Source: Coleofasciculus sp. B1-GNL1-01
GTDB taxonomy: Bacteria; Cyanobacteriota; Cyanobacteriia; Cyanobacteriales; Coleofasciculaceae
Assembly (NCBI GenBank): GCA_040220235.1
Contig: JAVJTO010000092.1
Direction: 5' to 3' (one strand)
DNA length: 64,000 nucleotides
The notes below the pieces were generated by a model. It had not been told where the DNA came from, searched no databases, and saw only the letters and a list, made by a program, of their open reading frames with translations. Below are positions 447 to 18,086 of the stretch, in pieces. The translations under genes were made by a program, and so were the position numbers. Position 1 is the stretch's first letter, and each line of letters begins with the position of its first letter.

Positions 447-1385
447 TCACTCCAAATTCGCCAAATTCATTTTATTAGAGCCATTTTTAAACTCATTCTG
501 ATAGGCATTTATTTTCTCGACAAATTCTTCTGTCAAGCGCATAAACGCTTTTGCCCCTGAAGAATTGGGAGAAGCGATAACCGCAGGCATAAAACTATCA
601 ACTGCCTTAGCCACATTCACATCCATCGGAATGCGATTCTTAAACAATTGCGTCGGAACAAAATCTTCGGTTACCCGATTCATCACCTGCTTGTAATATC
701 GACCCAGCAATCCTCCGGATAAAATAAAGACAATGCCTAATAACTGTAAGTCGAGAGAGGTGTTAGACTTATGACTCTCCTTCAATTTGGCAATCCGCCG
801 TTCTAAGAGTTGAATTCCCACAACTGATAAAGGTTCAGGGCGAGCCGGAAGTAAATAGAAATCACTGGCAACAATACCGCTACGGGTTAACAGATTATAG
901 CCAGGAGCGCAATCTAAGATAATAAAGTCATAGTTATCTATCACAGGTTCTAAAATACTTTTAATCAACAGCCGCTCAAACCGATTCCACACCTGATTAA
1001 AATTGGGCGTCTCTTCGCGACTGGCTTCTTGATGCAGCATCTCGGAGACTAAATACTCATCATACAGATCAATATCTCCCGGCAATAAATCCAGTCCTTT
1101 TACCGAACAAACGTAAGATTTAATAACATCCTGAATCTTGAGTTTGGCGTGGCGATTGGGACGAATTGCCTTATCAATTAACTGATTCAGCGTGCGTCTC
1201 GCTTTTCTGGCTTTAGCAAAATCTTGAGGGGCGATTAAGCTGAGTGTAGCGCTGATTTGTGTATCTAAATCAACCACTAAAACCCGTTTTTGATGCTGTT
1301 TCGCCAAGCAAGTTGCCAAGTTGACGGTTAGCGTCGTTTTTCCGACACCGCCTTTCATGTTAACTGTGGCAATGACAAATCCCAT
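447..1385 (-). CDS. parA: ParA/Soj family ATPase
   Basis: Deviant Walker A NMKGGVGKTT, VDLDTQ, Walker B IILDCAP, C-terminal SSGAKAF motif. Confidence 0.9.
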   Translation of the reverse strand: MGFVIATVNMKGGVGKTTLTVNLATCLAKQHQKRVLVVDLDTQISATLSLIAPQDFAKARKARRTLNQLIDKAIRPNRHAKLKIQDVIKSYVCSVKGLDLLPGDIDLYDEYLVSEMLHQEASREETPNFNQVWNRFERLLIKSILEPVIDNYDFIILDCAPGYNLLTRSGIVASDFYLLPARPEPLSVVGIQLLERRIAKLKESHKSNTSLDLQLLGIVFILSGGLLGRYYKQVMNRVTEDFVPTQLFKNRIPMDVNVAKAVDSFMPAVIASPNSSGAKAFMRLTEEFVEKINAYQNEFKNGSNKMNLANLE

Positions 1386-1589
1386 GATAAAATCCTCTTG
1401 GAGAAACGTTACCCAGTTAGGTATCAGCCAGCCTAGATTATAAACGCCGTATTGCGTCTGAAAATTCCCTAGCTTTCGGCAACAGTCTACTATAGTAAGC
1501 GATTTTACCCATCAAGGGAATCCAGTGAGGAATCCTTCGCAACCCTTAATACCATAGTTTTGAGTATTCCAAACATACCATTTTAGTCT

Positions 1590-1766
1590 GTAGGGGCGGG
1601 TTTCACTACTATCGTTTCTATTCCCACCCATAAGCAACTAAACCCGCCCCGCCCCAAGGGTAGAATTGTCAGATGGTATGTCTGTCCCCCCGGTTTCCAC
1701 CAGAAGGGCGGGTTTAGTCAAGTTATGGGTTTGTACCAAACTGTTATCGGTAAAACCCGCCCCTAC
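1590..1766. repeat. Inverted pair of GTAG-type REP elements (REPIN-like doublet)
   Basis: GTAGGGGCGGGTTT..AAACCCGCCCC at 1590-1650 and an inverted copy GGGCGGGTTT..AAACCCGCCCCTAC at 1706-1766. Confidence 0.8.
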
Positions 1767-1872
1767 AGCGTTACGTCCTTTTTCTTCACTATTGCCCATG
1801 ACACACCGAGCGTGTTACCGAGCGAAGCCGAGGTAAGCGTTCGACTGAGCGCTCACGCCGAAGTCCGAGGTG

Positions 1873-1915
1873 TTGCCTATTGCCTATTGCCTATTGCCTA
1901 GCGCGTAGCGCTATA
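1873..1915. repeat. STRR heptamer tract (TTGCCTA)n followed by GCGCGTAGCGCTATA
   Basis: Tandem ttgccta; the same composite end recurs at about 34636-34671. Confidence 0.8.
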
Positions 1916-2779
1916 CTAAGCAATTCGCTGGAGAAATTCTTTGGTTAACTCGGTAAACGCTTTCGCCCCCGTGGAGGTGGGTTCGGTGAGAACCACGGGT
2001 TGAAACTCATCAACGGCTTTGGCGATGGCGACATTGGTGGGAATTTCAGTGATAAAGACTTTATCGTCACCAAAATCAGAACGGACTCGCTTCTTGACTT
2101 TCCTTGCCATCGTTGTCGCATGACCGAGGGACGAAAAGACAATACCCAGTAAATTGAGTGTAGCGCGATCGCTCTGCTTGAGTTTCCGGATACGACCTTC
2201 CAAAATCCCCATCCCTACAACCGATAAAGGTTCAGGTTTGGCGGGAATCAGATAAAAGTCACTGGCAATCATACCACTGCGCGTCAGCAAATTATCTCCT
2301 GGCGGAAAATCTAGCAAAATCCAGTCATAATTGGAAACAATCGGTTTAATTATCCGCTTCACTAACCCATCTTCCAGATGATTCCAGCCTTTTTCAAAGT
2401 CTTGCTGATGGCTATTGGCTTGTCTATAAATCTGGGTCGCTAATAAGAAATCGTTGTACAGTTCGATATTACCCGGTATCAAGTCCAGTCCATTCACCTG
2501 ACAAATGTTGGGGACAATCACATCCTCAACAGTAGGGGCGGATAACGAATCAGATTGAAGCGCTTGATTAACTAATTGTTGTAGCGTGCGCTTTTGTTTA
2601 CGGCATTTTGTAAACTGTACCGGAGGGATTAGGCTGAGAGTCGCATTAATCTGGGTATCGAGATCAACGATTAGCACTCGCATCCCATGGTCTTTAGCCA
2701 GACTTGTCCCCAAGTTGACAGTGAGTGTGGTTTTGCCCACACCTCCTTTCATATTGACGATTGAAATAACGTGTCCCAT
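1916..2779 (-). CDS. parA: Second ParA/Soj family ATPase (paralog of 447-1385)
   Basis: NMKGGVGKTT, VDLDTQ, LLDFPP, PAKPEPLS; colinear with the neighbouring paralog. Confidence 0.9.
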   Translation of the reverse strand: MGHVISIVNMKGGVGKTTLTVNLGTSLAKDHGMRVLIVDLDTQINATLSLIPPVQFTKCRKQKRTLQQLVNQALQSDSLSAPTVEDVIVPNICQVNGLDLIPGNIELYNDFLLATQIYRQANSHQQDFEKGWNHLEDGLVKRIIKPIVSNYDWILLDFPPGDNLLTRSGMIASDFYLIPAKPEPLSVVGMGILEGRIRKLKQSDRATLNLLGIVFSSLGHATTMARKVKKRVRSDFGDDKVFITEIPTNVAIAKAVDEFQPVVLTEPTSTGAKAFTELTKEFLQRIA

Positions 2780-3053: not shown

Positions 3054-4154
3054 ATGTTAAGAAAAATCAAAATTCAAGGCTATAAATCTATTCGAGATAT
3101 GGAGTTGGAGTTAGCACCCAGAAATATTTTAATTGGGGCGAATGGAGCTGGAAAATCTAATCTCATTTCTTTCTTCAAACTATTACGCTGGATGCTGCAA
3201 ACACCAGGACAGTTACAAGTATTTGTCGGCAAGTCAGGCGGAGCCAATGCTTTGCTGTTTGATGGTGCATCCGTCACGCCACAAATGGAGTCAGAACTTC
3301 ATTTTCAAACAGAAGCCGGACGAAAATATTACTTCTTTAGGCTTTTTTATGCTGCCTCAGATACGTTCATCTTTGCTGAAGAGAAATATCGCTTTTCCCG
3401 TACCACGTTTAATGGGCTGGCTGATTGGACATCATTAGATGCAGGTCAGAGAGAAGCGAAACTAATTGATAGTGCAAATTCAGGCAATGCAACAGCTAAA
3501 ACTATTTTAAAACTGATGCAGAGTTGTGCCGTTTATCAGTTTCACAACACATCGGAAACGGCTCGGATTAGACAACGATGGAATATAGACGATAACCGAT
3601 ATCTACGAGAAGATGGAGCCAACTTAGCTCCCTTTCTCTTGCGCCTCAAAGAAACAGAGCCAATTTATTATAGAAGAATCGTCGATACTCTGAATCTAAT
3701 TGCCCCATTTTTTGCTGATTTTGTTTTAGAACCAGTCAGTAACGCTGTTATTCTTCAATGGAGAGAAAGGGGAACTGATTTAATCTTTAGTTCGGCTCAA
3801 GCCTCAGATGGCACATTGAGGACAATGGCATTAGTTACCCTTTTATTACAACCCCAACGTGATTTGCCGGATGTTTTAATTTTGGATGAACCAGAATTAG
3901 GGTTACATCCTTATGCCATTAATATCATCGGTGGTTTAATTAATAGTGTTTCTCTTCATAGTCAAGTCATCTTAGCTACTCAGTCCACCCTGTTAATTGA
4001 TTTATTTGAACCCGAAGACATTATTGTTGTCGAACGAAAAAATCGTCAATCTTATTTTTATCGACAAAAAACCGAAACACTGGAAGATTGGTTAGAAGAG
4101 TATTCATTGTCTGAGCTATGGAATAAAAATATTATTGGAGGAAGACCGAGCTGA
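3054..4154 (+). CDS. ABC-type (AAA_21/COG4637-like) ATPase
   Basis: Walker A GANGAGKS, signature ASDGT, Walker B ILDEPELGLHP, switch ATQS. Confidence 0.85.
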   Translation: MLRKIKIQGYKSIRDMELELAPRNILIGANGAGKSNLISFFKLLRWMLQTPGQLQVFVGKSGGANALLFDGASVTPQMESELHFQTEAGRKYYFFRLFYAASDTFIFAEEKYRFSRTTFNGLADWTSLDAGQREAKLIDSANSGNATAKTILKLMQSCAVYQFHNTSETARIRQRWNIDDNRYLREDGANLAPFLLRLKETEPIYYRRIVDTLNLIAPFFADFVLEPVSNAVILQWRERGTDLIFSSAQASDGTLRTMALVTLLLQPQRDLPDVLILDEPELGLHPYAINIIGGLINSVSLHSQVILATQSTLLIDLFEPEDIIVVERKNRQSYFYRQKTETLEDWLEEYSLSELWNKNIIGGRPS

Positions 4155-4828
4155 TGATTCGTTTACATATTGTTGCGGAGGGTCAAACAGAAGAGGAATT
4201 TATTAAATCTGTTTTAACAGAACATTTAGGTAATTTCAATATTTCAACTGATGTGCATTGCGTTACAACTAAACGAACGAAAAATAAGGTTTATCGAGGT
4301 GGAGCCGTCAGTTATGGAAAAATCAAAAAAGATATTATGCTCTGGCTCAAGCAAGATAGGAGTCAGGAAGCAAGATTTACAACAATGTTAGATTTATATG
4401 CTTTACCAAATGATTGTCCTGAGTTTGCTGAATCTCAAAATAAGTCCGATCCTTATCAAAAAGTTGAAAAACTAGAAGCAGCTTTGGGTAATGACATTAA
4501 TGACCCTCGTTTTATTCCTTACATTCAATTGCATGAATTTGAAGCTTTAATCTTATCTGATCCCAGTAAATTAGCTGAGAGATTTCCTGACTATCAAGTC
4601 AACATACAAAAACTCTTAGCGGATTGTGAAAAGTTTCCGTCTCCGGAACTCATTAATGATGGCTCAACTACAGCACCTTCTAAGCGCATTAACAAATTTA
4701 TTCCGGGTTATGAAGACGCAAAAGTATCGGTGGCTCCTTTAATAGCTAAAAAAATTGGTTTACCAGCCATCAGACAAAAATGTCCTCATTTTGATGCTTG
4801 GATATCCCAGCTAGAACAGTTAAGATAG
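4154..4828 (+). CDS. DUF4276-family TOPRIM-like protein, coupled to the upstream ATPase
   Basis: N-terminal IVAEGQTEEEF, TMLDLYALP, HEFEALIL, IRQKCPHF; TGATG stop/start overlap. Confidence 0.75.
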   Translation: MIRLHIVAEGQTEEEFIKSVLTEHLGNFNISTDVHCVTTKRTKNKVYRGGAVSYGKIKKDIMLWLKQDRSQEARFTTMLDLYALPNDCPEFAESQNKSDPYQKVEKLEAALGNDINDPRFIPYIQLHEFEALILSDPSKLAERFPDYQVNIQKLLADCEKFPSPELINDGSTTAPSKRINKFIPGYEDAKVSVAPLIAKKIGLPAIRQKCPHFDAWISQLEQLR

Positions 4829-4863
4829 ATAAACTCAATTTTAGAGACAAAACTCTCACACTC

Positions 4864-4911
4864 CCTCTGCGTACCTCTGCGTTAAAACCTCTGCGTACCT
4901 CTGCGTTAAAA
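4864..4911. repeat. 24-nt tandem duplication between convergent genes
   Basis: cctctgcgtacctctgcgttaaaa x2. Confidence 0.8.
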
Positions 4912-4927
4912 AAATCCCCTTCCCCCT

Positions 4928-7483
4928 TCACAATTCAATCCTTCGAGCAAATAAACTCTGCAACCGCTGCAACTTCGCCCCAACTTGATATAGTAAATCC
5001 CCTTTCCCTAAAAGATAAGCCGCTTCCGATTGTTTCCCCCCTAAAATAATCTCAGAATCCGCTTCGCTAGCTGTCCGCAACGCAACTCGCCCCGGTAAAT
5101 TTGACCGAATAATTGGCGTAACGACTTTCGCTTCGGGGCGTTGAGTGGCAATAATTAAATGGATACCCGCCGCTCTCGCCATTGAGCCTAACCGTTTAAT
5201 ACTTAATTCTAAAGCATTGCGGATATCTTTTTCGGTCATAAAGTCAGCATATTCGTCAAAGATGCAGACAAGACGAGGTAAAGGTGGGTTATTCTGTTGA
5301 TTATAAGCATCCAGGTGAGAACATCCCGCTTGCTCAAATCGCTGATAACGCCGTTCCATTTCCGTGACTAAATTATCCATCAGAGCGATCGCATCTTCGC
5401 TATCCTTGACGATAGGAGCGTATAACCAGGGGATTTGCTCGAATTCGGGAAAGGTGACACGCTTGGGATCAACCAGGGCGATTTTAAGCTGTTGGGGCGA
5501 ATGGCGATAGAGTAAGGATAACAGGAGCGATCGCAAAAATTCACTCTTCCCGCTTCCGGTTGTTCCCCCAACTAGAAAATGACAGGTATTCGCATCGGAT
5601 AAGTCGGCTTCCACCAGTTTCCCATCTAAATCCACACCAATGGCAATTTTTACTGGAGCCTGAGTCGGTGTTGTCTGAAGTGTGATATAATCCTCAAGCC
5701 GCGCTACTTGTCGATCTGGACGCGGTAAATCGACGCTGACATAGCCAGGTTGGGGCGCAATTAGGGGGGGATTGGTAATTCCTAGTTGTACCTGTAAATC
5801 AGCCGATAATTTCAGCAAAGCACTAACCTTTACCCCCAGACTCGGTTTCAGCTTTACCCGAATAAACGCTGGACCAACGGCGGTTCCCACACAAGTCACG
5901 TCTATCTTAAAGGATTGTAACGTCTCAACTAACTGTTGCGCGATCGCATCAACATCAACATCTGGAGTAGGTTCTTTTTCCGGCTGAGGCGTTTCCACTG
6001 TCTCAGGAGTAGGCTGAGAGGCAATAGTGTTAGATGTTTGACTGGGCGCTGCTGCAATAAATTCTAATAAATAGCGATAAACATGAGCCAGATAAACTGT
6101 ATCCATCTTGGCATACTTTATCTGCTTTTCCGTTAACGGGCGCTGTCCCCAATCGCTTTGCTGTTCCTCACTATCGACATGAGAGAATTGACACAGTTCT
6201 ACCGCCAATGTTTTCAGTTTCTTGTTGGAGACTTGCAGCCGATTCGAGCGCCTTTTTCTTGTCAGCCTATTCACCATCTTTTGTGTACAAGTAATATTCT
6301 CCGCCTGTTCTTTCCCCAGAAACCTTAGATCAAAGCTGGCGTTGTGAAAGACTTTTTCTATTCCGGGATTTACCATAATTTGCTCAACAAAATTCTGTAC
6401 CACATCCGGCTGATCCAAGACATCAAATATATAAGCATGTTTCCCGGTTCTATCGGTAGGATTCGCTAACACCTGGATTAGAGACAATCGGGGATTAGCG
6501 GTATTCCAATCCGCTACTTCTGTATCCAGCCAGAGGATTTCTGCGCTAGTCAATTGCTTAATCATAGCTCGAATCTCAGCAGGTTTGGTTAGATAGTGAT
6601 TCGATTCATCACCCTCAAATAACGTCTGACATTTTTCCTGCTGGGGGCAAATTTGGCACAGGTGAGCCTGGGAGGTTGACGGCGGTGGATCGGGTTGTCC
6701 GGGTTCCCAGGTTAACCATTTCTGCATCTGCTGTAATTTAGGGGGAATAAGCTGATGCACAGTAGTTTCTAGCTGTTCCCAGGAATAGTGATACTCTTTA
6801 AATTCGGGTAAAACACAATAGATAGCGGAGTCAACGGGTAGTTTGGTCTTTTCCCAGAGGAGATAACTATAAACCGCAACTTGGGCTAACTGGGCGGATG
6901 GATCAACAGGCTCATAAGTTTTGTATTCAACCACACAGAGACGCTGGCGATCGCTATCGAAAATTAAGTTATCAAATTGACCTTTAACCACTTGTTTTGT
7001 GCCATCAGATAAGGTAAACTGATGCTGAATAAGTTTCGGATCAGGATCAATAAAGGTTTTACCAATAACCTCGGCTGCACTGTGATAGCGGCGATTCTTA
7101 ATTAACAGTTCTGCCCAACGCTGAATTAACCCCCGTAATCCTTGCCAAACTTGAAATAACGGCTGGGCTTTTCCCGGATCAGTTTGGGTGATTTCTTGGA
7201 AATAGGGATAAAAAGCCAGTTGATAAAACAACTGTTCCATCTGAGTCGCGATCGCCTCTTTTTTCAGATGATCGGCGTCAGCTTCAAACAGTTGTCGAAA
7301 TTTACCGTTTTGACAAGCCAGTTTGACAAACTGATTTGCCAATTTATGAAAGGTAGTGCCAATCCCCTGTGAACTCTCTGGGGGTAGAAATAAACTTTTT
7401 CCGCCCAGTTTCTTTGATAAATAAAATAGGCGAGGGCATTCGACAGCAACCCGGATATCAGTAGCGGTTAATGAATTCGTCAT
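4928..7483 (-). CDS. Fusion of a Cas4/AddB-like PD-(D/E)XK nuclease, a DEDDy 3'-5' exonuclease and an FtsK/SpoIIIE motor (no TM or gamma domain)
   Basis: ECPRLFY..GTTFH, GQFD, EYKT, QVAVY, CQICPQQEKC; LDTE, FHNASFD, SDWGQRPL..YAKMD; GGTTGSGKS, IFDEYAD, ARAAGIHLIIATQRP. ATG at 7483 lies 1 nt after the upstream stop (the ORF track starts at 7504). Confidence 0.85.
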   Translation of the reverse strand: MTNSLTATDIRVAVECPRLFYLSKKLGGKSLFLPPESSQGIGTTFHKLANQFVKLACQNGKFRQLFEADADHLKKEAIATQMEQLFYQLAFYPYFQEITQTDPGKAQPLFQVWQGLRGLIQRWAELLIKNRRYHSAAEVIGKTFIDPDPKLIQHQFTLSDGTKQVVKGQFDNLIFDSDRQRLCVVEYKTYEPVDPSAQLAQVAVYSYLLWEKTKLPVDSAIYCVLPEFKEYHYSWEQLETTVHQLIPPKLQQMQKWLTWEPGQPDPPPSTSQAHLCQICPQQEKCQTLFEGDESNHYLTKPAEIRAMIKQLTSAEILWLDTEVADWNTANPRLSLIQVLANPTDRTGKHAYIFDVLDQPDVVQNFVEQIMVNPGIEKVFHNASFDLRFLGKEQAENITCTQKMVNRLTRKRRSNRLQVSNKKLKTLAVELCQFSHVDSEEQQSDWGQRPLTEKQIKYAKMDTVYLAHVYRYLLEFIAAAPSQTSNTIASQPTPETVETPQPEKEPTPDVDVDAIAQQLVETLQSFKIDVTCVGTAVGPAFIRVKLKPSLGVKVSALLKLSADLQVQLGITNPPLIAPQPGYVSVDLPRPDRQVARLEDYITLQTTPTQAPVKIAIGVDLDGKLVEADLSDANTCHFLVGGTTGSGKSEFLRSLLLSLLYRHSPQQLKIALVDPKRVTFPEFEQIPWLYAPIVKDSEDAIALMDNLVTEMERRYQRFEQAGCSHLDAYNQQNNPPLPRLVCIFDEYADFMTEKDIRNALELSIKRLGSMARAAGIHLIIATQRPEAKVVTPIIRSNLPGRVALRTASEADSEIILGGKQSEAAYLLGKGDLLYQVGAKLQRLQSLFARRIEL

Positions 7484-7484
7484 T

Positions 7485-9548
7485 TTAATGGATAGGATTA
7501 ACAACTAGACAGACAACTTGTTTTTCTAGCTTTTCCTTTATATTAGGAATTTGAAGTTTATTTTCTTGACACAGTTCCTCAATTAGTGGGTTCAACTGAG
7601 ATTCATTAAACTGCGAGTATTCGCGGTTGGCGTTTTCCAGTAAGGTTTTTCGCCCTAGCATCATCCCATCATTTCGGACAAGTGTTACTAAATAATCCTT
7701 AACGTCTTGCCGTACTTTTTCTAGCTCATTATCCTTATCGTCTCCTCCCCCCTTTTCAGGAGTAGCCGGAACAATTCCCAACTCCTGTAATAAACTACAG
7801 TTATGCAAAATTTTTGATTCACGGATAAATACTTCCAACTCCTTTAAATTAGGCGTTAGATCACCCACGACTAAATCCCCAGCACGAGCTGCATTCCCTA
7901 AACTATGATATGTTGCCAGGTAGTGTACTGAGTTTAAATGGGGGGTAATGTGACGATGAGGTGAACCTGTAAAGATGCGCTTAAACAGTCTGTATCCTGC
8001 ATTTCTGGTTTGACCCAATTGAGCAGCCCGAATTAGGATCAAGCTATTGCATAGTTTTTGATGAAGTGCTTTTTCGCAAGCGTTCATTAGAGAAGAAAAG
8101 CTTCTCAGATTGGCTTCTTCACTCCAAACGATTCCGATTCGTTCTGTCTGATCTGAGGGTTTATAGCTCAAGGAATAAATCGAATATTTGGTGTTCTGTA
8201 AAAGTCGATGCTCAATTCCCGCGACTTGTAATGCACTCAGAACCTCTTGCAACATTTGAATCAGTTCCGGCGATCCGAGTTTAGGAATTCTATCGATTTT
8301 TTGCTGCGTTTTTTTGAATTCCTTGCGCCAGACTAAATCCAATGCAGCCAACGGATCAGTTGGAGGAGTTGGCGGTTTTGGCGAGGGAGTCTCTGGTGCA
8401 GGGTTAGGCGCGACTGGAACGTCATCTTGAACTAAATGAGCTTTGTAGTCTTGAAATAGGTGACGCCCTAATTGTAAAGCGTAGCGAGGAGTGGTTTTGC
8501 CACGGGGAAATTTGTCCTCTAAAGCTTGCCGAGTTAAGGGATAAATTGGCAAGTCAGGCTGAGGAGTGGCTTGCTGATGTAACGGATAAAGTCGCTTTGC
8601 CCAAAGTGCTTCGGCTTGCTCCAATGTAATCGGCTTGAGCGAAAGCGCTCCATAGATTCGACCTTCAATTTTATCAGAAGGTTGAACATTATTTTTATTG
8701 TTTTGCCAAGTACTATTAATGATGCTAATAATCACCAAAAAATTTTGCGGATAGCGCGTGTTAATACTGGAATTGACATTAAATAAAGCTTGTAAGTCGA
8801 TGGAACCGTCGGGAAAGCGAGGAATGCTATCCAAGTTATCAAAACACAGTACAATCGGCTGGCTGCTAGCAGAAACTCTGCCAAAGTTAGCCAAAAGTTT
8901 TTGAGCCGCATCTTCACTGTCAATCAGGCGTTGAACTCCCAATTCTTTGAGATCGTCTTCATCTAATTCATCTCCCCGTAACCAATCACAGGCAAGAGGC
9001 TGTAATTCAGGATTATTCAGGTGATAGAGGACTTTGAAAAACTCTCTGGGATTGTAGATTCCTGTAGGATAGCTTGCTTTCAGATCACTAATAAACTTCT
9101 TCTGCTCACCCAGTAGTTGTTTCATCAAGCTGCTTTTTTTGAATGCGGGTAAACCCTTGAGCCAAAGCAGCAACTGAGAGGCCTGTTGACCTTCGGGAAT
9201 ATGCATCAAACTATCAACCGTTTGCCGCAGAATATGACGCCAGATATAATCACTATCGGGCCACGGTTCAATATAAGCGAAAAAGGCTTTAGGGTTAAGG
9301 GTGCGTTTAAGCCGTGCTAAAAGATAACTTTTCCCCGATCCCGAATCTCCCGCCAATAGTAAAGTGCGCGGATAATGGTCTTTAGCAACTTGATCCAAAA
9401 CCCTTTCTATTTGAGTAATCACGTTTTTATGAATTGAATCAACCGCGATCGCTTGATCTTGCCGTTCCTGCCAAAAGTTACGGGTTTGAAAGGTAACTGG
9501 GTCAAAAGGATTAATCTCTTGCCGAATAATTTGATCGATGGATGCCAT
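7485..9548 (-). CDS. P-loop (AAA+-like) ATPase, probable RcaG-like partner of RcaD
   Basis: Walker A GDSGSGKS, Walker B VLCFDNLD, Pro-rich linker, uncharacterised C-terminal half. Confidence 0.75.
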   Translation of the reverse strand: MASIDQIIRQEINPFDPVTFQTRNFWQERQDQAIAVDSIHKNVITQIERVLDQVAKDHYPRTLLLAGDSGSGKSYLLARLKRTLNPKAFFAYIEPWPDSDYIWRHILRQTVDSLMHIPEGQQASQLLLWLKGLPAFKKSSLMKQLLGEQKKFISDLKASYPTGIYNPREFFKVLYHLNNPELQPLACDWLRGDELDEDDLKELGVQRLIDSEDAAQKLLANFGRVSASSQPIVLCFDNLDSIPRFPDGSIDLQALFNVNSSINTRYPQNFLVIISIINSTWQNNKNNVQPSDKIEGRIYGALSLKPITLEQAEALWAKRLYPLHQQATPQPDLPIYPLTRQALEDKFPRGKTTPRYALQLGRHLFQDYKAHLVQDDVPVAPNPAPETPSPKPPTPPTDPLAALDLVWRKEFKKTQQKIDRIPKLGSPELIQMLQEVLSALQVAGIEHRLLQNTKYSIYSLSYKPSDQTERIGIVWSEEANLRSFSSLMNACEKALHQKLCNSLILIRAAQLGQTRNAGYRLFKRIFTGSPHRHITPHLNSVHYLATYHSLGNAARAGDLVVGDLTPNLKELEVFIRESKILHNCSLLQELGIVPATPEKGGGDDKDNELEKVRQDVKDYLVTLVRNDGMMLGRKTLLENANREYSQFNESQLNPLIEELCQENKLQIPNIKEKLEKQVVCLVVNPIH

Positions 9549-9667
9549 GCTAAAGTTGGGTTCTACTCAGAGACTGCCGTAACAAAGAAATAGAATTAGC
9601 GGATAGAATGCTAAGTCGAATGGCACTGAAATAAGCATTTTTGGATTGCCGAAACCCTTGATATAGT

Positions 9668-9699
9668 GTAGGGTGGGTTGAGCGAAGTCGAAACCCACC
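9668..9699 (+). repeat. Short GTAG-type REP hairpin
   Basis: GTAGGGTGGGTTgagcgaagtcgAAACCCACC. Confidence 0.7.
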
Positions 9700-9724
9700 A
9701 GCATACCAGTCAGTACCCTTCATA

Positions 9725-10588
9725 TTACGTCACGATGATGAAGAACAAGCGTCCCCCAATATCTTGAGGAATCCCCGCCTCAATTTGTTCTGGAGTATAG
9801 GTTCTCACTTCTTGCAACGCGCTGAGTTCTATCTTATCTTGCCGTTCTAGGCGATAGAGTGCCTGATCTAATTCTTCCCTGGATAGGGGCGGTTGTAACT
9901 TATCCCGCAAATAAAAAATCGGCAAATAGTTGTCTGTCCCCAATTGCCGATCTAAATCTTGAATGATCTGTAAAATCTCTTCATCACTGGAGACGCGCCA
10001 TAGTACGTCTCTACCTGGCTGGCTTGTCAATGCGGCTGTCGCTGGCGTCGGCGACGTGGTAACAGCTTGTAATTCTCGGGGCAGAAATTTCCGTAGAAAG
10101 CGCAGGTAATCTGCCAACATTGCTTTAGTCATCGTGAGATTTCCCGCACCCAGAGGCATATATTCCTCCCGCAGATACTCCTTCCCCGGTTCCGTCAGCC
10201 AAACTTCTTTAATTTGCGTCTGTACTGGCTCAATAAACCCCCGATGTGCCAAACTGTCGATGAGTGCTTGTCGGGTTTTAGCCGGGGTGATCTTGGTTTG
10301 GCCGGGAGTAATCGCGCCCTTCTGGCAAGCTTGGAGTATTTTCAACTCTTGCGGGGTTACAGGTAATCCCGCCGGATCTAATTTCAGTAGGGATTCTCCT
10401 GCTGGGGAAATCTTCAGCTTTTGAATCTCCTCACTATAGCCAACCAAATCCCGTTCCCGTAGCTGACGGCAAATGCGATCGCGTTCTGAGGCTGACGTTT
10501 TAGAATTTGGCTTAAGTTCTGTAATCGAGGCTCGATAATCTGGTTTTCCCAATAGTTTCAACAGAAACTTTAGTTCTTTAACGTCCAT
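9725..10588 (-). CDS. rcaD: RcaD-like putative DNA-binding (winged-helix repeat) protein
   Basis: ELKFLLKLLG start, EVWLTEPG, and C-terminal NYLPIFYLRDKLQPPLSREELDQALYRL..GIPQDIGGRLFFI resemble cyanobacterial proteins annotated RcaD (recalled, not searched). Confidence 0.65.
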   Translation of the reverse strand: MDVKELKFLLKLLGKPDYRASITELKPNSKTSASERDRICRQLRERDLVGYSEEIQKLKISPAGESLLKLDPAGLPVTPQELKILQACQKGAITPGQTKITPAKTRQALIDSLAHRGFIEPVQTQIKEVWLTEPGKEYLREEYMPLGAGNLTMTKAMLADYLRFLRKFLPRELQAVTTSPTPATAALTSQPGRDVLWRVSSDEEILQIIQDLDRQLGTDNYLPIFYLRDKLQPPLSREELDQALYRLERQDKIELSALQEVRTYTPEQIEAGIPQDIGGRLFFIIVT

Positions 10589-10795
10589 AACATCAACCTT
10601 ATTTAATTCGCTTCCCCAATTCTAGAGAGTAAGATGCTCCCATGACCAATGTTTTGGCATACTTACCCCAAACCGACTCAACAGCCAACAGCACGACTGC
10701 ATCGGCAACAGAGACAATTCCATCCTAGCTTCATAAGATTAGGTTGGTAGTCAGCACTTGAGGGATAGCAGCGCTGAAGCGCTTACTACAAACAT

Positions 10796-11782
10796 TCAAC
10801 CCGCTTCTCGCACCTGATCGGTATAATCTTTGGGACGCATTTGACGAAACGCCTGCAACGCCGCTTGCCGTAAACTGAGGGGTAAATAGGATAAGATTAC
10901 TCCCAATTGCGCTTTCCGAGAACTACCAATAATCTCCGCTACATCTTGCAACATTTGGCGTCCCTGAACTGTATCCCCATTTTCAATTAACCGTAACCCC
11001 AAAGCTTCTTTAGTCCAGGCTAATTTTTGTATCCGTAGTTTCTCTAATTCCTGATCGGGAAATCGATAACTATCAATACAAAATACCTTTGCCTTCAAAA
11101 AATGCAGATTCTGTCTTAAACTCGTCTGTCCCCCGTGAAACCGATACTCCATCAAATACTCTGGCAAAAAATACCCCTGCTTAAGCGCGATCGCTAATCG
11201 TACCAGTAAATCAAAATCCTCGCAGCCATCGGCTTCTGGGCGCATATAGTCAACATCCTGCAAACAGGCGCGACGAAACAAGGTTGAACCCACCTGCAAA
11301 CTTTGATATTGAAATGTTTGCCGCATTAAATCAGGAATTATACCCTGCTCCAGCTTATCCTTACCCCACTTCACCGCATTTTCTTTCGTCGCCGACTCCA
11401 CGCGATTGCCGTTTTTATCAATAACCCAGTGATTCGTACAGACAAAATCAACACTGGGTTCCGCCTCTAATACTGCCACTGTTTTTTCTAAGAATTCTGG
11501 CGTTAGGGCATCATCATCATCAAATTTGATAAAATAGTTTCCCTGGGCTGCATCAAATCCAGAGCGCATATTTTTACTGCGTCCAATATTTTTAGGATGG
11601 CGGATATAGCGAATGCGGGAATCATCCCCCTGATTGACAACCGTAGGCGTCTCATCAGTTGAACCATCATCGCAAATAATTAACTCAAAATCTTTATACG
11701 TCTGACTCAGAACACTGTTAACTGACTCAACTAGATAGTTGGCACGGTTGTAGGTGGGAATACAAACACTAACTTTAGACAT
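10796..11782 (-). CDS. Glycosyltransferase family 2
   Basis: VSVCIPTYNRA, DDGSTD, FDDDD, EDFDL. Confidence 0.9.
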   Translation of the reverse strand: MSKVSVCIPTYNRANYLVESVNSVLSQTYKDFELIICDDGSTDETPTVVNQGDDSRIRYIRHPKNIGRSKNMRSGFDAAQGNYFIKFDDDDALTPEFLEKTVAVLEAEPSVDFVCTNHWVIDKNGNRVESATKENAVKWGKDKLEQGIIPDLMRQTFQYQSLQVGSTLFRRACLQDVDYMRPEADGCEDFDLLVRLAIALKQGYFLPEYLMEYRFHGGQTSLRQNLHFLKAKVFCIDSYRFPDQELEKLRIQKLAWTKEALGLRLIENGDTVQGRQMLQDVAEIIGSSRKAQLGVILSYLPLSLRQAALQAFRQMRPKDYTDQVREAG

Positions 11783-12047
11783 GATACACTAGCAAAGGAC
11801 ACAGTTAATGACGAATAATTGTCTAAATTTTAACAATCAAATCAGGCTAGGTGAGAATTCCAGTGCTTTACCTCCTACTGGGTGCGGTAGACACACAACG
11901 GGTTACACTCTTTTTGTAGCCAAATTCCGGTATAATTTTATCGAGTTGAGCAATAAATTCTTCAATCAAACTGCAATAGTTTGGACTCACATTAGCCTCA
12001 ATGCGATTCAGCCTAAAATATGAAAGGGTTATACAAGGAGGTATAAT

Positions 12048-13286
12048 TTGGCGATCGCTCCCTCGATTCGGACTCTCTTCATTACTAAGGAAGTGCCGTA
12101 CCCACCCAAGGGTGGAGTATCTCTCCGGAACTGGCAAAACATCAACATCATGATCAAGTTTGGTCGGGTTGCCGTTTTCTCCGCTTCCAACTGGACTCCT
12201 AAGCACTCCTCTCTACCCGGTGTTGTCCTATGGCAGCATACTAATGTTGCTACACAACGTTCAGGGTGGGAAAATCGAGAACGTCGGTTGTGGTGGCTGC
12301 GCCGCCGCAGACATCCAGATGCGGATTGGGCTTATTCCCACAAGGCGGCTCAGGAATTAGATGAACTCTTAACCAAATTCCAGCCTGATCTGGTAATCTT
12401 TGAGGAGGTGTGGCTGTATCCCTACCTGAGTGTGGTCAAGCGTCATCAATGTCGGATTATTTTTGATGAGCATAACATAGAGGCACAGCTTTTCCAGCAG
12501 AAATATCCTTCATTTCAGGGTCTCAGATCACGGGCGAAAGCGACTATTCAGCTTTCCCATCTCACGTCCATTGAGGGCGACTTCGTCCGTCAAGCTAACC
12601 AAGTTTGGGTATGTAGTGATGATGACGCTTGCCTAATCAATAACTTTTACGGAGCGGTATCCAATACTAAAGTTGTACCCAATGGGATGAATGTGGCACA
12701 GTATGACCCGGTGCGCTTGGATCAATGCCCCCCTCCCAGTGGATTAGAAGATACTCGCCGAACCTTATTATTTGTGGGTTTACTCTCCTACGCACCCAAC
12801 ACCGAGGCGGCAGAATTACTCATAGACCAAATCTATCCTCGGTTACGAGAGATTGACTCGGACTGTCGTCTCCTGTTGGTCGGACGCAATCCGAATCAGA
12901 AGATGCAGGAAGCTGCCCAGCGAGAACCTGGGATCATCGTCACAGGAGGGGTTCGAGATGTACTGCCTTATCTAGCTGCTGCTAGCATTGTGATTGTGCC
13001 ACTGCTTCAGGGGGGAGGCACTCGTCTGAAAATCCTAGAAGCTTTTGCTGCTGGTTGTCCAGTCATCAGTACGGCTAAGGGGGCTGAGGGGTTGAAAGCT
13101 AAGGATGGAGAACATTTGCTGATTCGGAATGAAATTGACGCGATCGTCGAGGGTGTGTATCAACTCTGGTCAGAGCCTACCTTGGGTGAAAAACTGGCTC
13201 GTTCTGCCTATGAGTTAGTCAAGTCAGAATACTCCTGGGAAGCGGTTGGGAGAAAGGTAGATCAGGTTATTCAAGAGTTATTTTGA
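12048..13286 (+). CDS. Glycosyltransferase family 4
   Basis: VVPNG, GGTRLKILEAFAAGCPVIST, YSWE. Confidence 0.9.
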   Translation: MAIAPSIRTLFITKEVPYPPKGGVSLRNWQNINIMIKFGRVAVFSASNWTPKHSSLPGVVLWQHTNVATQRSGWENRERRLWWLRRRRHPDADWAYSHKAAQELDELLTKFQPDLVIFEEVWLYPYLSVVKRHQCRIIFDEHNIEAQLFQQKYPSFQGLRSRAKATIQLSHLTSIEGDFVRQANQVWVCSDDDACLINNFYGAVSNTKVVPNGMNVAQYDPVRLDQCPPPSGLEDTRRTLLFVGLLSYAPNTEAAELLIDQIYPRLREIDSDCRLLLVGRNPNQKMQEAAQREPGIIVTGGVRDVLPYLAAASIVIVPLLQGGGTRLKILEAFAAGCPVISTAKGAEGLKAKDGEHLLIRNEIDAIVEGVYQLWSEPTLGEKLARSAYELVKSEYSWEAVGRKVDQVIQELF

Positions 13287-13373
13287 AGGCAAAAGATTAA
13301 ATTAAGCAATATGCTAAATAGCATTATTGACTTTATAATCCTCAAAGACTAACTTGAAAAGACGCTGTACTCT

Positions 13374-14627
13374 TTACACAAAGTTGGCGCGTGCCAGTTC
13401 TTGAATTTTAGGTAATTTCGCTTGAATTTGCTGGCAAATATATTTTCTATTTTCAATCAGGGGAATCAAAAATTTAACTAACTTATTTGACTGAAGAGCT
13501 TGTTGTGGCTCAATCATCATACCTTCTAGCTCAAAATGCTTAAACAAACCTTCAAATTTTCCCTGATATGTAATACAGCCTACGGGTGTTTGTTGACCTA
13601 AACAAGCGATAGAAAGGTGAAATTTACCACTTAGAACCAGATCAAGCTTACCAACTATAGCTTTGATATTAGCTGCTGTGCAAGTTGCGCTTATTTTTCG
13701 AGAATGAAACTGGATTTCGGCAGGAAGTGCCTTGAAAATTGCCTCAATTATGGCAAGGTCACTGAACTTGTTTTTGTAAGTCCGAAAATCGTGAGGAATT
13801 AAAACAAAACTAATTGTTTGGTTTTTTGAATACAGTTCTACTAAGGTATCGACATAGATTCTAACAAGCTGCTCAAAGGTTTGAATACCAGCCCCTTCAG
13901 TGAGTTGGTTGTAAGGATTGAAGCCTATTACAATACGACCATTGTTTTGTTGGTGAGCAATCCACTCCCAAATTTCGGAAACAGTCTCGGACTCTACAGA
14001 AGGAGGCAGCAGAAATGCTACATCTGCTACAAGTTCAATGGCTCTATCTGTATGTTTAACCAATCGTTCTTGGGAAATTTGGTCTCTCGCACATAATTTG
14101 ACATTGGATGGCAATTTCCGTAAACTTTGCACAGAATCGGGTGTTGGTTTTTCATTAAAACTGAACCCAATAACAGTTGTATCAAGTCCTATTGACGCGG
14201 CGACTGAAATAATAGTCAGCATTTTAGACGTAGCTGGAGGATAATAATAACCATCCATCATGTCAGCACCAAGGCAATAAAATTGCTCATATCTGCCAAT
14301 AATAGGAACAAGACGGAATAAAGCTTTCCAGGAACGCCATGAACCATAAGAGAAATAGTCTTTCATTTCAATAACTTCATTGACTGAATGTAAGCCTCCC
14401 CACTGGCGATCAGGATTGTAAGAGATTAAACCAATATGGTTTACACCTTTTTGCTGAAGATAATTGACTGTTGCAGCCACCAAAGCTTCATCGCCTAGAT
14501 TACCCGGTGCTGCTGCGGGTAACACAAGAGCAGATGACTCCACGCTTTGAAGGAGTCCCACAGTTCGCATTAGGCGAAAAACAGTGGTGTAAATTGTTAG
14601 TAACCAGGAGACGATTAGTCGTTTCAT
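13374..14627 (-). CDS. Polysaccharide pyruvyl transferase family protein
   Basis: GNLGDEAL, ARDQIS, ADVAFLL, SGKFHLSIACL..YQGK. Confidence 0.8.
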   Translation of the reverse strand: MKRLIVSWLLTIYTTVFRLMRTVGLLQSVESSALVLPAAAPGNLGDEALVAATVNYLQQKGVNHIGLISYNPDRQWGGLHSVNEVIEMKDYFSYGSWRSWKALFRLVPIIGRYEQFYCLGADMMDGYYYPPATSKMLTIISVAASIGLDTTVIGFSFNEKPTPDSVQSLRKLPSNVKLCARDQISQERLVKHTDRAIELVADVAFLLPPSVESETVSEIWEWIAHQQNNGRIVIGFNPYNQLTEGAGIQTFEQLVRIYVDTLVELYSKNQTISFVLIPHDFRTYKNKFSDLAIIEAIFKALPAEIQFHSRKISATCTAANIKAIVGKLDLVLSGKFHLSIACLGQQTPVGCITYQGKFEGLFKHFELEGMMIEPQQALQSNKLVKFLIPLIENRKYICQQIQAKLPKIQELARANFV

Positions 14628-14648
14628 AAATAAAATAATCCAACTTTT

Positions 14649-15536
14649 TTAATGTCTATCTAAATTTCCCCACCATTTAGGATCTGATTCATATCCTAGT
14701 TTTAGGAGAACCTCATTATAATTGTCTTTAAAAAACTCTATATGCTCTTGCTTGAAATGATTTTTCCAGTCTCCAAATACTCCTTTTCTATAGTGACTCT
14801 TAGCATTTTCGTCGCCGATTTTCCTGCCTTTTGCGAGTATCGAAAATTCATTTTTAAATACTATTCCCAATAATCTTTCTGCTGGAATACTATCCATGCT
14901 GAATTGAAATGGAATAAAATAATATTTTTTGTACTTTTTATTTAGTTTGTTAATTATTATATTTGATAGCTGAAACAAATAATATTTAAATCCAGCATTT
15001 TTATTTAAAACTCCTAAAAAATCAAAAATATTAAGGAAATTTTTATAAGGATTACTTGCAAGATATTCCATTTTTATTTCTAAGATGTTTGGCATATTAT
15101 AGTTCCAATTATACATTTCCTCAAGGAAACGCTTACTGAATTTCATCTCTAAAATTATACCTTCATCTTTAGGTAATTCTTTTAGCTGTCTCCGGTGTTC
15201 TTTAAGTTCTGGCCAATGCTTAGTTATTGGATGACTGTAAAGATGGGAAAAATATGCAGAAGTGATTAAGTCTCGCGGATCTCTTATCACATGAAATCCT
15301 TTAAAATTTTCCAGAGCAGATACATAGAGAAAGTCTGCATTTGTATAACAAAGGAAATCTACATTTTCTAAAGTTGCAAACTCCTTCAGATTATGATTAA
15401 ACATATTGGCATTAGAGACATAGGATGTCTTCCAGCCCAGATTATTACAAACATCTACAATTATAGAATTGATCCAGGTACTAGCTGCTTTGTGATGTCC
15501 AAAATAAGCTAGTAGATGATTTTTGTTCCTTGTCAT
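14649..15536 (-). CDS. Sulfotransferase-domain protein
   Basis: 5'-PSB-like HHKAASTW, 3'-PB IRDPRDLITSAY, C-terminal YRKGVFGDWKNHF; visibly AT-rich. Confidence 0.8.
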   Translation of the reverse strand: MTRNKNHLLAYFGHHKAASTWINSIIVDVCNNLGWKTSYVSNANMFNHNLKEFATLENVDFLCYTNADFLYVSALENFKGFHVIRDPRDLITSAYFSHLYSHPITKHWPELKEHRRQLKELPKDEGIILEMKFSKRFLEEMYNWNYNMPNILEIKMEYLASNPYKNFLNIFDFLGVLNKNAGFKYYLFQLSNIIINKLNKKYKKYYFIPFQFSMDSIPAERLLGIVFKNEFSILAKGRKIGDENAKSHYRKGVFGDWKNHFKQEHIEFFKDNYNEVLLKLGYESDPKWWGNLDRH

Positions 15537-15583
15537 TCTTGAACTCCTTTAATTACTATAAATTGCTTAATACAAACTACTAG

Positions 15584-17044
15584 CTATGAGCTAAACCTTC
15601 CCAGCAGATCCATCAATACCTGCTTAACACGTTGCGCTACTTGCATCCATTTAGGTAGCTTATAGGATGCTCGATATGCCTCAACTAAAGGTTCTATCTT
15701 CTTTACGAATAAGGAAAAGTCACGAGCTTCTACTGCTTCTTTGAAGGCAATATGACTTTGTTCGGCTAACAAAACACGGAATTTTTGCCCCTTGTTAAAC
15801 AAAGGTCTGGAACGGTCAATCCTAGGCTGAACACGCTTCGGAGGAAACCATTCACCTCTACGCTTAGTCATGAGGAGACGATATGCTAACCCATCCCGCC
15901 GATGACGGAATCCTGATTCCTGCGAACGAGCTACTTCTTCAGCATCTATGTAATCAAGCTTTAACTTGCTAGTCGCCATCCCTTGTTCCAATAACTCACG
16001 GATTTTCGGGTGGCGGACAATTACTACGTTTGTACCTTGGCTGTCCCGAACATATTGAGGCAACCAAGCATCACCAACACTAACATCTGCTGCTTCAGCA
16101 ACCACATCATCACAATAATCGCAGGCTTTGTACTTAAAAAAGCCTAGCCCCCAATCTTTACCGTAAAGTTGATCAACTGGACTGGTTTGAGTGATTACCT
16201 GACCCTCTTTTAGTCCCACTACCTCAATTCCATAGCTATTAGCATTTCTACCGGGTATCTTCTTACGGAAGTCGAACTCTAGAATGTTACCGGGTTCAAT
16301 GCCACACTGCCATGCAAACATATCAGCAAACCGCCTACTCTTGAGATGACCACAAACTAGCCCGACACAAAACTTGATCCGTTCCGCTAATATAGCATCC
16401 TGACGCATCAGGAGACGAACCGCTTTAAGAAAACAGGGTATCCCGACAATGGCATAGCGTCCTGGTTGTTCTCGGACTTGCCGAATAACTTCAGACATTT
16501 CGATAGGATAGTAGCGAGACTTTGCCCCCCGTTTCACCTGTTCGATTGTCGTGGATATTTGGTAGTGGAATAGCCTAGAATCATCCTCAGAAGGGTGACG
16601 AGGTTGGACGTGAATCACTCGATCAACTAAACCTTCCAGCATCAGGTTAGTCACAATCCAGGTACCCATTCCACCCGAACTGCCGCGATCGCGAAAATTT
16701 CCCTCAGACACGAAACCTGCATAGGTAGCTTGATAATAGCCGATTTTGTTGTGGTCTTGACAGTCTTTGCCAAACAGTTCCTGACCTATCTGATCTTCGT
16801 TTTGTGAGCGACTTGAGAATGGGCATACAGCCTCCACGGGAAGCTCCAAGGACGACTGTTCAGCTAATGGATTAATAGTAGCAGTAAACTTGCCGTATTC
16901 GTCCATCTGCATCTGAATTGGAGATTCGCTGACTGCAGCGCATGCACCGCAGCCTATGCAATAGCCGCCCTTGACTACAGTCTTAAAGAGATTTCCTAGT
17001 TGTGAGTTTTCATTAAGGACAGTGATGTTCGCCGAGCTACTCAT
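15584..17044 (-). CDS. Coenzyme F420 hydrogenase/dehydrogenase beta-subunit (FrhB)-like Fe-S protein
   Basis: CIGCGAC, VCP, SSGG, SRYYP, VGIPC, GLVCGH, ACDYCDD, DVSVGDAW. Confidence 0.85.
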   Translation of the reverse strand: MSSSANITVLNENSQLGNLFKTVVKGGYCIGCGACAAVSESPIQMQMDEYGKFTATINPLAEQSSLELPVEAVCPFSSRSQNEDQIGQELFGKDCQDHNKIGYYQATYAGFVSEGNFRDRGSSGGMGTWIVTNLMLEGLVDRVIHVQPRHPSEDDSRLFHYQISTTIEQVKRGAKSRYYPIEMSEVIRQVREQPGRYAIVGIPCFLKAVRLLMRQDAILAERIKFCVGLVCGHLKSRRFADMFAWQCGIEPGNILEFDFRKKIPGRNANSYGIEVVGLKEGQVITQTSPVDQLYGKDWGLGFFKYKACDYCDDVVAEAADVSVGDAWLPQYVRDSQGTNVVIVRHPKIRELLEQGMATSKLKLDYIDAEEVARSQESGFRHRRDGLAYRLLMTKRRGEWFPPKRVQPRIDRSRPLFNKGQKFRVLLAEQSHIAFKEAVEARDFSLFVKKIEPLVEAYRASYKLPKWMQVAQRVKQVLMDLLGRFSS

Positions 17045-17072
17045 AATTAATAACTAATGATAATACACCAAA

Positions 17073-18086
17073 TCAACTAACAGATATTTTCTTGACTTTT
17101 TGGACAAATTTTTGTAAATTTCGGTTGGTCTTTACGAATAAGCTGGGTGATTTTAGTTGCTTAGGTTTCTGATCGGGTTGTTTCATGAAGCGATAACATA
17201 AAAATATATCTTTGTAACGAATATCAACATCTTCTCCTTTACATAACTGGGCGAAATCCTTAGACGAGTAGTTCATGTAGTGAATGCGATGAATCGGCTT
17301 TAATCCCTGCTCATTATAGAGAACCTGATCAATATTCACGAAGGGATCGGCATCCGCACAATTACCCGTGCGGTCTTGCCCGTTGGGGCTGAGAGTAAAG
17401 TTATATAAGGGGTGATCGCACCGAAGCGTCATATAATTAAACAAAAATGCATCATCCCACCAACGAGATACCCAAGCTATTTCTTCCCGTTCAATAAGCT
17501 GCTCTTTCAAAATTGATAGTTCTTGTTCATCAAAAATTCCTTGTTTTGAACCAAAAAAGCTAGAACAATGCAGTTTTGGTCGGATCTGTTCTTCTGTATA
17601 AATACCACTTTTTTCAATTAGAGGAATATTCAGTGCCGCCGTATCCACCGATTTCTTGTGTTCCCAATCATCAAACACAAAGTCATAGGCGTCTAACTTT
17701 TCCAATACATCCTCCACCGACTTCATGGCTAGACTATCAGCATCGTAAAAGACAAACGTTTCAAACTGCCCATCAAAAGCCGTAAACCTTCTATGATGAC
17801 CTTTGCCCCAGGGGGGACGAGTAATCGCCTTCTTTTTGGCGGCTGGATGAGCTGCCCAAACCTGTGTGGCAAAGTCTTCCCAGCGTTGAATTGATTCCCT
17901 GTTATCAAACAGTGTGACATTGGCTCTGGAATCAACTTCCGGCTTTACTCGTTCGAGTCGTTCGTCATAGGGAATTACACAAACTGGAATGTCAGGACTG
18001 ACATTCACCTCAATGCTGTTGAGTAAGGCAACGAGTTGGTCATAAACTGCATCATTAGCTAGGGTATAAATACCAAAGGATGACAT
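17073..18086 (-). CDS. Npun_R2821/R2822-like nucleotide-diphospho-sugar transferase
   Basis: GIYTLANDAVYDQLVALLNSIE start, DxD motif YDADSL, IHYM. Confidence 0.7.
   Translation of the reverse strand: MSSFGIYTLANDAVYDQLVALLNSIEVNVSPDIPVCVIPYDERLERVKPEVDSRANVTLFDNRESIQRWEDFATQVWAAHPAAKKKAITRPPWGKGHHRRFTAFDGQFETFVFYDADSLAMKSVEDVLEKLDAYDFVFDDWEHKKSVDTAALNIPLIEKSGIYTEEQIRPKLHCSSFFGSKQGIFDEQELSILKEQLIEREEIAWVSRWWDDAFLFNYMTLRCDHPLYNFTLSPNGQDRTGNCADADPFVNIDQVLYNEQGLKPIHRIHYMNYSSKDFAQLCKGEDVDIRYKDIFLCYRFMKQPDQKPKQLKSPSLFVKTNRNLQKFVQKVKKISVS

Follow-up and report, generated by a model that had tools for sequence, protein, structure and literature searches.

Three open reading frames, here called genes A, B, and C, lie on the minus strand of a 64,000-nucleotide stretch (the window) of contig JAVJTO010000092.1 from the cyanobacterium Coleofasciculus sp. 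B1-GNL1-01 (GCA_040220235.1). They encode an RcaD-family DNA-binding protein, an RcaG-like ATPase, and a fusion of two nucleases with an FtsK motor (Table 1). As an original prediction made from the sequence alone had noted, the genes are co-oriented and the last two are 1 nt apart: a single base (7484) separates the stop codon of B from the ATG of C, and 176 nt separate A from B. Our analysis suggests that the cassette probably belongs, as a cyanobacterial representative, to the predicted Orc/CDC6-coupled HerA/FtsK capture systems; it would then be an anti-invader DNA-capture nuclease machine, with a recognition front end that can be exchanged. This reading builds on protein domains, intact active-site motifs, gene linkage, the dependence of C on A, and the exchange of a block of genes, as they appear in sequences or models. 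What this analysis adds is the exchange of the front end in place, a one-way dependence of C on A, evidence that the cassette lies behind most FtsK matches in cyanobacteria, and the demotion of a neighboring HEC-01 pair.

Table 1. Features of the cassette and its flanks (positions in the window)
Feature	Position	Strand	Basis
Gene A, RcaD-family DNA-binding protein, 287 aa	9725..10588	-	Winged helices (three)
Gene B, RcaG-like ATPase, 687 aa	7485..9548	-	AAA_16/STAND-type NTPase plus C-terminal winged helix
Gene C, PD-(D/E)xK nuclease/DEDDy exonuclease/FtsK fusion, 851 aa from ATG at 7483	4928..7483	-	Pfam
Gene C domain 1, Cas4/AddB-like PD-(D/E)xK nuclease with a conserved four-cysteine set (predicted Fe-S staple)	6614..7483	-	Pfam, motifs
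Gene C domain 2, DEDDy 3'-5' exonuclease	6065..6595	-	Pfam, motifs
Gene C domain 3, FtsK alpha and motor	4928..5953	-	Pfam, motifs
Exchangeable front-end block (A, B, and nuclease/exonuclease)	5951..10790	-	DNA identity, trees, breakpoint
HEC-01A/HEC-01B (ABC ATPase and DUF4276), neighbor outside the cassette	3054..4828	+	PADLOC 1.2e-136, 9.4e-82
Flank, two ParA-family ATPases	447..1385, 1916..2779 (447..2779)	-	Pfam; recurrent downstream
Flank, family 2 glycosyltransferase, edge of variable polysaccharide cluster	10796..11782	-	Pfam; recurrent upstream

Gene C joins, in a single gene, the Cas4/AddB-type nuclease, DEDDy exonuclease, and FtsK motor that had been proposed for it. Pfam matches follow one another in that order, namely PDDEXK_1 (residues 5-286, 8.8e-16), DNA_pol_A_exo1 (297-473, 1.2e-29), FtsK_alpha (491-587, 2.1e-12), and FtsK_SpoIIIE (607-783, 3.6e-42), and every catalytic motif is present. 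The nuclease of the window copy has C16, D171, E186-x-K188, Q201-xxx-Y205, and C276/C279/C285; the exonuclease has D320, E322, D385, Y457, and D461; and the motor has a Walker A motif (640-647), D743-E744, R770, and Q781. All four nuclease cysteines are invariant in 62/62 aligned domains, and D171, K188, Q201, and Y205 show at least 90% conservation across the 62 rows. From these motifs, the nuclease is an intact restriction endonuclease (REase) domain and is predicted to be active. Some of the aligned rows, not assigned to particular loci, carry degenerate active-site motifs, and stand-alone nuclease domains adjoin A-B at six loci (L010, L028, L076, L075, L098, and L138). The exonuclease, internal in the window copy, is N-terminal in most homologs and missing from several. 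Also borne out was the claim that C is without the membrane anchor and gamma domain of divisome FtsK: Pfam listed neither a four-transmembrane (4TM) anchor nor a gamma domain at E ≤ 0.1, and the protein ends at residue 851. Its scores fall well below the cutoffs for Cas4 (TIGR00372, 24 versus 65 bits) and for PRK10263 (176 versus 1566 bits).

Gene B combines an NTPase (residues 1-372), a proline-rich linker, an alpha/beta domain (~426-555), and a C-terminal winged helix-turn-helix (wHTH) domain (603-683). It matches AAA_16 in Pfam (1.8e-10), and a profile search of the PDB returned KAP NTPase (1.6e-4), Rad24, and Cdc6 (2qby, 0.034). The top Foldseek rows for its C-terminal half were ORC/Cdc6 proteins (E 0.006 to 0.007). 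Gene B is clearly of the AAA+/STAND type and may belong to the Orc/CDC6 clade. In the structure model, residues 426-555 adopt a helix-3 strands-helix-strand-helix-strand topology that resembles a restriction endonuclease, with weak Foldseek rows to EcoO109I, PaqCI, Cap4, and Mus81-Eme1 and no conserved D..(D/E)xK motif. The VIA lists for this inactive-REase-like domain were filled by wHTH, and Pfam found no REase family in 82 gene B C-terminal halves. Sequence searches of solved structures with the C-terminal half and with the nuclease domain returned nothing significant, and neither model had a Foldseek match at E ≤ 0.001. When gene B was modeled together with the nuclease domain of C, the complex scored 0.39 versus 0.00 for the best control, with contact agreement of at least 67% and partner pLDDT of at least 82. 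The mark that we applied was reached by 116/157 solved complexes and by 2/215 mismatched pairs; among those that reached it, scores at or below 0.60 belong to only 18 solved complexes, yet to both mismatches. The prediction thus lends weak support to a complex of gene B with the nuclease.

Gene A has two interleaved winged helices (~1-150), a disordered linker (173-197), and a third winged helix (~200-287). It had no match in Pfam, PADLOC, or NCBIfam. The original prediction called it RcaD-like, and this agrees with its Atlas clusters, which are named RcaD (0.97), and with 8/10 homolog clusters looked up, which bear the name "transcription factor RcaD." Together with the ATPase gene that follows, these names and the shared homologs, rather than a direct comparison with CAC39267, place the pair in the RcaD/RcaG family. 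A 274-aa homolog from PCC 7424 (P0042) is 54% identical to gene A and fits an entry beside RcaD in a table of PMC2799420. Table 2 of that paper also contains a more distant binder/ATPase pair (All4300-like "5335/5336") with a weak resemblance to RcaD/RcaG. The winged helices of gene A have MarR-like matches; no specific kinship to DndG, SspB, or FokI was seen among the 50 matches listed or in PADLOC. Likeness to L148, a distant upstream gene, was weak (hhalign probability 19%, E 0.0012).

Across 401 cyanobacterial genomes, rcaD was found in 49, with three decayed copies (G314, G346, and G264). We examined 48 of these genomes, including that of the window, leaving out the fragmentary G244. The linkage of a nuclease-FtsK gene to rcaD, which the original prediction had singled out for survey, held in most of them: 33/48 have an adjacent, intact A-B-C trio. 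Among the other 15, 4 have an intact C elsewhere, 1 is decayed, and 10 are without the C motor. When 7 candidates per genome were scored against FtsK_SpoIIIE, 45/401 genomes had matches at 1e-20 and 356/401 had none. Forty of the 45 FtsK-positive genomes also carry rcaD, and no C-type protein was found in the 5 that do not. The dependence of C on A is therefore one-way, in that C was not found without A and A-B occurs without C. Including one unpublished genome (G405), the window's family of 52 genomes has A in 43, the nuclease in 33, and ParA in 47. Six high-GC metagenome contigs, probably not cyanobacterial, are among the 50 loci listed; they keep the same binder-ATPase-nuclease/FtsK order with a nuclease that has no four-cysteine set. 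At some loci, the cassette takes an A-B-B form with two diverged ATPases and no C (L011, L012, L064, L066, L069, L070, L062, and L021), and some genomes carry A-B-B plus A-B-C.

Within the genus of the window, two alleles of the front end occupy one site. Three of 8 relatives carry the window's allele (A 84 to 94%, B 86%, and nuclease 94 to 96% identical), and 5/8 carry a divergent one (A 46 to 47%, B 50 to 52%, and nuclease 56 to 57%), whose exonuclease (72 to 74%) is N-terminal in C. In those same five divergent-allele relatives the motor is 92 to 95% identical, as are, where covered, the flanking genes at 92 to 99%. At the DNA level, the block is 66 to 73% identical where alignable and both flanks are 89 to 97% identical; the break falls near window position 5951, at about residue 511 of C, where FtsK-alpha begins. 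FastTree trees of nine genus rows gave one clade for the motor (support 100) and two clades each for A, B, and the nuclease. As a control, long syntenic matches of window 11.8 to 51.6 kb to genomes G415 and G418 are 89 to 96% identical. The swap is locally unusual, though it lies beside another variable locus. Because A, B, and the nuclease are exchanged as one block on a constant motor, they appear to be mutually matched parts, as a recognition module of a conflict system would be.

The architecture of the cassette is not undescribed, as had been claimed, because PMC10853773 (Rakesh, Aravind, Krishnan, NAR 2024) predicted it from genomics alone as Orc/CDC6-coupled "HerA/FtsK capture systems" directed against invaders, a hypothesis restated in section 36 of PMC12839542. 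The parts set out in section 22 of PMC10853773 are an Orc/CDC6 ATPase that carries an inactive REase insert plus a wHTH, an active REase, and an FtsK with FtsK-alpha. Its optional parts are a protein of 2 to 4 wHTH domains with kinship to DndG/SspB/FokI and a motor-fused 3'-5' exonuclease, and no methylase is included. Within that description, the wHTH on the ATPase, the REase domain, the FtsK-alpha motor, and the motor-fused exonuclease all have counterparts in the cassette, and a methylase is absent from both. Gene A, with its three winged helices, may correspond to the multi-wHTH protein, and gene B may be the Orc/CDC6 ATPase with its inactive REase-like insert; no listed part is contradicted by the cassette. 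The cassette differs in having both optional parts together, in its four-cysteine nuclease (a feature that the six distant homologs are without), and in its long-lived chromosomal site, where the neighborhood is not evidently mobile. Block exchange on a constant motor does not figure in the parts of PMC10853773 covering capture systems, and its main text contains no occurrence of RcaD, Cas4, or cyanobacteria, although its supplement may list these proteins.

Better-known motor systems are less suitable homes for the cassette. DndFGH/SspFGH and MADS mad6-8 likewise consist of three genes that supply an NTPase, a wHTH binder, and an REase-FtsK protein, and the best PADLOC match of C is SspH (1.2e-71; mad8, 6.8e-28). 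This match, however, is confined to the motor (476-834 versus 1368-1739 of 1766), gene B resembles SspF/DndF only faintly around Walker A (E 0.006 to 0.007), and gene A not at all. Neither full-length DndH/SspH (~1,250 to 1,800 aa) nor DndF/DndG orthologues were present, and phosphorothioate or methylase genes do not recur nearby. With divisome FtsK/SpoIIIE, gene C shares FtsK-alpha and a motor with all catalytic motifs, but it has no 4TM anchor or gamma domain and carries two fused nucleases. We reject membership in either group because the C motor branches apart from four cellular FtsK rows and from the DndH-like motors, which in cyanobacteria form a separate branch. Proteins of 1,750 to 1,815 aa with a C-terminal FtsK motor occur in four cyanobacterial genomes (L118 to L121) and are DndH-like by size and layout. 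With AddAB, Cas4, and HerA-NurA, gene C shares the coupling of a four-cysteine PD-(D/E)xK nuclease to an ATP-driven motor. The motor of C differs from those of AddAB and HerA-NurA in being an FtsK on the same chain instead of a UvrD-type helicase or a separate HerA. Cyanobacterial FtsK and dif are treated in parts of PMC7766704 and PMC3025954.

If the cassette is a capture system, its parts may act in sequence. RcaD (A) would bind DNA with little sequence preference, and RcaG (B) would assemble on the bound DNA using ATP and judge whether it is a target. The cue is probably structural, for instance a free DNA end or an intermediate of replication or transfer, because the cassette encodes no methylase. 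Gene B would then dock the nuclease domain of C, either recruiting or licensing it, and C, as an FtsK ring, would pump double-stranded DNA past the PD-(D/E)xK nuclease, with the optional 3'-5' exonuclease trimming the cut products. The target, the trigger, and the means of self-protection are inferred. A, B, and the nuclease would work as a matched module for recognition and cutting, swapped among lineages while the motor stays the same. More tentatively, and we would not be surprised to be wrong, RcaD/RcaG could act as the sensing arm of a cyanobacterial immune machine that has no methylase and whose front end is exchanged on a constant, captured FtsK motor in the manner of type I restriction specificity subunits. 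The third winged helix of RcaD also occurs alone in very long proteins (P0126 and P0231; 4 and 2 motif copies) of two virus-classified contigs (L198 and L199), where it is possibly a decoy or a mobile DNA-binding module. If the immune role is real, these tandem proteins would be mimics or decoys aimed at that machine. We take such very long winged-helix proteins to resemble tape-measure proteins, and a PHROGs search with P0126 returned no named family.

For two decades, RcaD and RcaG have been filed as light-responsive transcription regulators. In Calothrix (Tolypothrix) PCC 7601 they were described as phycobiliprotein regulators: RcaD reportedly binds the cpc2 promoter and changes red-light operons, with RcaG as a helper ATPase (Noubir 2002, as cited in PMC2799420). 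The cassette shares with that pair a DNA-binding protein followed by an ATPase, and the account in PMC2799420 mentions no third gene, unlike the cassette with its gene C. It is conceivable, if improbable, that RcaD-RcaG is a true ATP-dependent pair that regulates phycobiliprotein or other operons, with C as a separate passenger; the MarR-like matches and the 10/48 genomes with A-B and no motor fit this idea. Yet C lies 1 nt from B and was not found without A, A, B, and the nuclease swap as one block, the trio extends to the high-GC contigs, and the RcaD homolog 7968 bound several unrelated DNA fragments non-specifically and formed dimers (PMC2799420). A conserved unit of wHTH protein, ATPase, and nuclease-FtsK, with a non-specific binder among its homologs, agrees with the earlier view that a DNA-processing or anti-invader machine fits better than a photoregulator. 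Under the capture reading, the old phenotype would come from a general DNA binder acting incidentally, or else the A-B pair would have a second function. Literature searches on RcaD with defense or chromatic terms found nothing linking them.

The patchy, losable occurrence of the cassette (49/401 genomes, decayed copies) favors a capture system, as does the insertion at its site of HEC-01, an unrelated candidate defense pair. Also in its favor are the fit of the domain set to the section 22 list, the linkage of the trio, the lack of C-type proteins in the FtsK-positive genomes without rcaD, the in-place swap, the shared layout of the six high-GC contigs, one plasmid with the whole operon, the weakly supported complex of gene B with the nuclease, and the DNA binding of homolog 7968. 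Several observations weigh on the other side. There is no methylase or other self mark, which leaves self-protection unexplained; the published regulator phenotype and the A-B pairs kept without a motor also count here; and our literature searches found no experimental study of the HerA/FtsK capture class and no phage, plasmid, or DNA-damage phenotype. The exchangeable block borders a polysaccharide-type cluster (11868-18200) that is partly absent or divergent in G415 and G418, with one 71% allele; a region prone to recombination may thus account for part of the swap. Within one allele type, dN/dS is 0.04 to 0.23 across all folded domains and highest in B, indicating purifying selection, and coarse pairwise comparisons (2 to 3 pairs per gene) detected no positive selection. 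The gene A tree largely tracks families (11 changes versus 24.2 when shuffled; minimum, 7). A and the nuclease are both present in 9/9 genomes of the genus, and the same glycosyltransferase and/or ParA stands beside the cassette in 23/50 loci (ParA downstream in 19, glycosyltransferase upstream in 12), pointing to old synteny. Distant homologs apparently lie among housekeeping genes, judging from starts of open reading frames only. Enrichment of rcaD neighborhoods in defense islands, which had been proposed, was not apparent. Only 21/283 representatives of neighbor clusters, covering 431 neighboring genes, match PADLOC at 1e-15, a count that has no matched control. About 10 of them read as plausibly defensive, a weak island signal, and the rest are ABC transporter, kinase, desulfurase, TnpB, intein, and Uma2 domains. 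The original prediction had itself named a core, syntenic operon that is never near defense genes as a sign against it. The genus-wide presence and shared flanks go in that direction, and the cassette is seldom, rather than never, beside defense genes.

These features are in part those of a host DNA-maintenance machine, which we regard as rather unlikely yet the most serious challenge to a defensive role. It would be an end-resection or junction-clearing motor-nuclease (AddAB- or HerA-NurA-like) or a soluble translocase that aids ParA-based chromosome sorting in polyploid, filamentous cyanobacteria without divisome FtsK. Gene C is the only FtsK-family gene found in the window's genome, most FtsK-positive genomes carry rcaD, ParA often lies downstream, and the context is one of housekeeping genes, mostly vertical descent, and purifying selection. 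The putative Fe-S nuclease also resembles AddB. An HSDR_N-ParA fusion, often accompanied by a ParB-like gene, is found repeatedly next to the cassette or in its place, on the opposite strand (L019:913-3176, L010, L016, L021, L028, L093, and L096), and the third winged helix of RcaD occurs elsewhere in fusions with ParB_N domains and, in one case, with an ADP-ribosyltransferase domain (P0235, P0267, and P0248). However, the FtsK-nuclease function is dispensable, since most genomes have no FtsK match. ParA persists at loci that have lost the cassette or hold a decayed copy (L093 and L107) and is more widespread in the family than the nuclease. A maintenance role does not predict wholesale replacement of the front end among close relatives, and the motor lacks the gamma domain that would load it directionally. 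The tandem ParA genes of the window share 52% identity, no ParB was seen next to them, and the 312-aa one is near-core in the family.

Mobile elements offer a further reading, to which we give little credence: the cassette would be a domesticated relic or helper of such an element, or it would prepare incoming DNA for recombination instead of destroying it. FtsK motors of cyanobacterial plasmids branch next to that of C (93/88), Orc/Cdc6-like ATPases serve transposons, and one plasmid, typed conjugative, bears the whole operon. That plasmid is, however, the only one of 72,556 plasmid records to hold A or B; gene B was not found in viral contigs; no integrase, relaxase, or transposase recurs in the common neighbor clusters; and the chromosomal position is stable. 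Cargo of prophages or plasmids as a rule can be set aside on the same counts, with only the isolated third winged helix in 2 viral contigs. All7666-type plasmid FtsK genes have a different gene context.

Few defense neighbors, the long-standing glycosyltransferase/ParA synteny, and the recent arrival of HEC-01 together indicate that the cassette is an old chromosomal resident of an insertion-accepting site and lies outside the usual defense islands. The HEC-01 insert spans ~1,935 bp between the cassette and ParA, and contigs in 4/4 runs join 2911 directly to 4847. Among 8 relatives, HEC-01 is intact in 1, a remnant in 1, absent from 5, and not covered in 1. We therefore rejected this convergent pair as a fourth and fifth cassette component; its recent arrival is a further point against a defensive role. 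In parts of its own description, HEC-01 conferred no protection (bioRxiv 2024.01.29.577857). Another contig of the genome (G000:C101) bears a second HEC-01A (50%) accompanied by a partial match to HEC-01B.

The cassette is a compact, testable representative of a predicted defense class, and its natural allele pairs can be used to ask which part sets the target. If it is a capture system, the label "transcription factor RcaD" on many database entries would be reassigned, and most cyanobacterial FtsK genes would serve an accessory nuclease machine and not cell division.

Searches for promoters, terminators, and operator repeats gave nothing above shuffled sequence (7 versus 9.9 and 6 versus 6.5) and no meaningful repeats. 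The RNA runs produced contigs covering 9 to 12% of words, which may contain DNA and support no claim about expression. At window 9800-10599, contigs in 3/4 runs bridge most of rcaD, which hints at natural deletion alleles; with a likeness of 88%, these contigs may derive from other organisms. Dispersed intergenic repeats at 2846-2920, 9606-9720, and 4861-4915 have 155, 101, and 48 short-match hits in the genome, respectively. The first flanks the HEC-01 insertion point, and within the last, positions 4864-4911 form a perfect 24-nt tandem pair.

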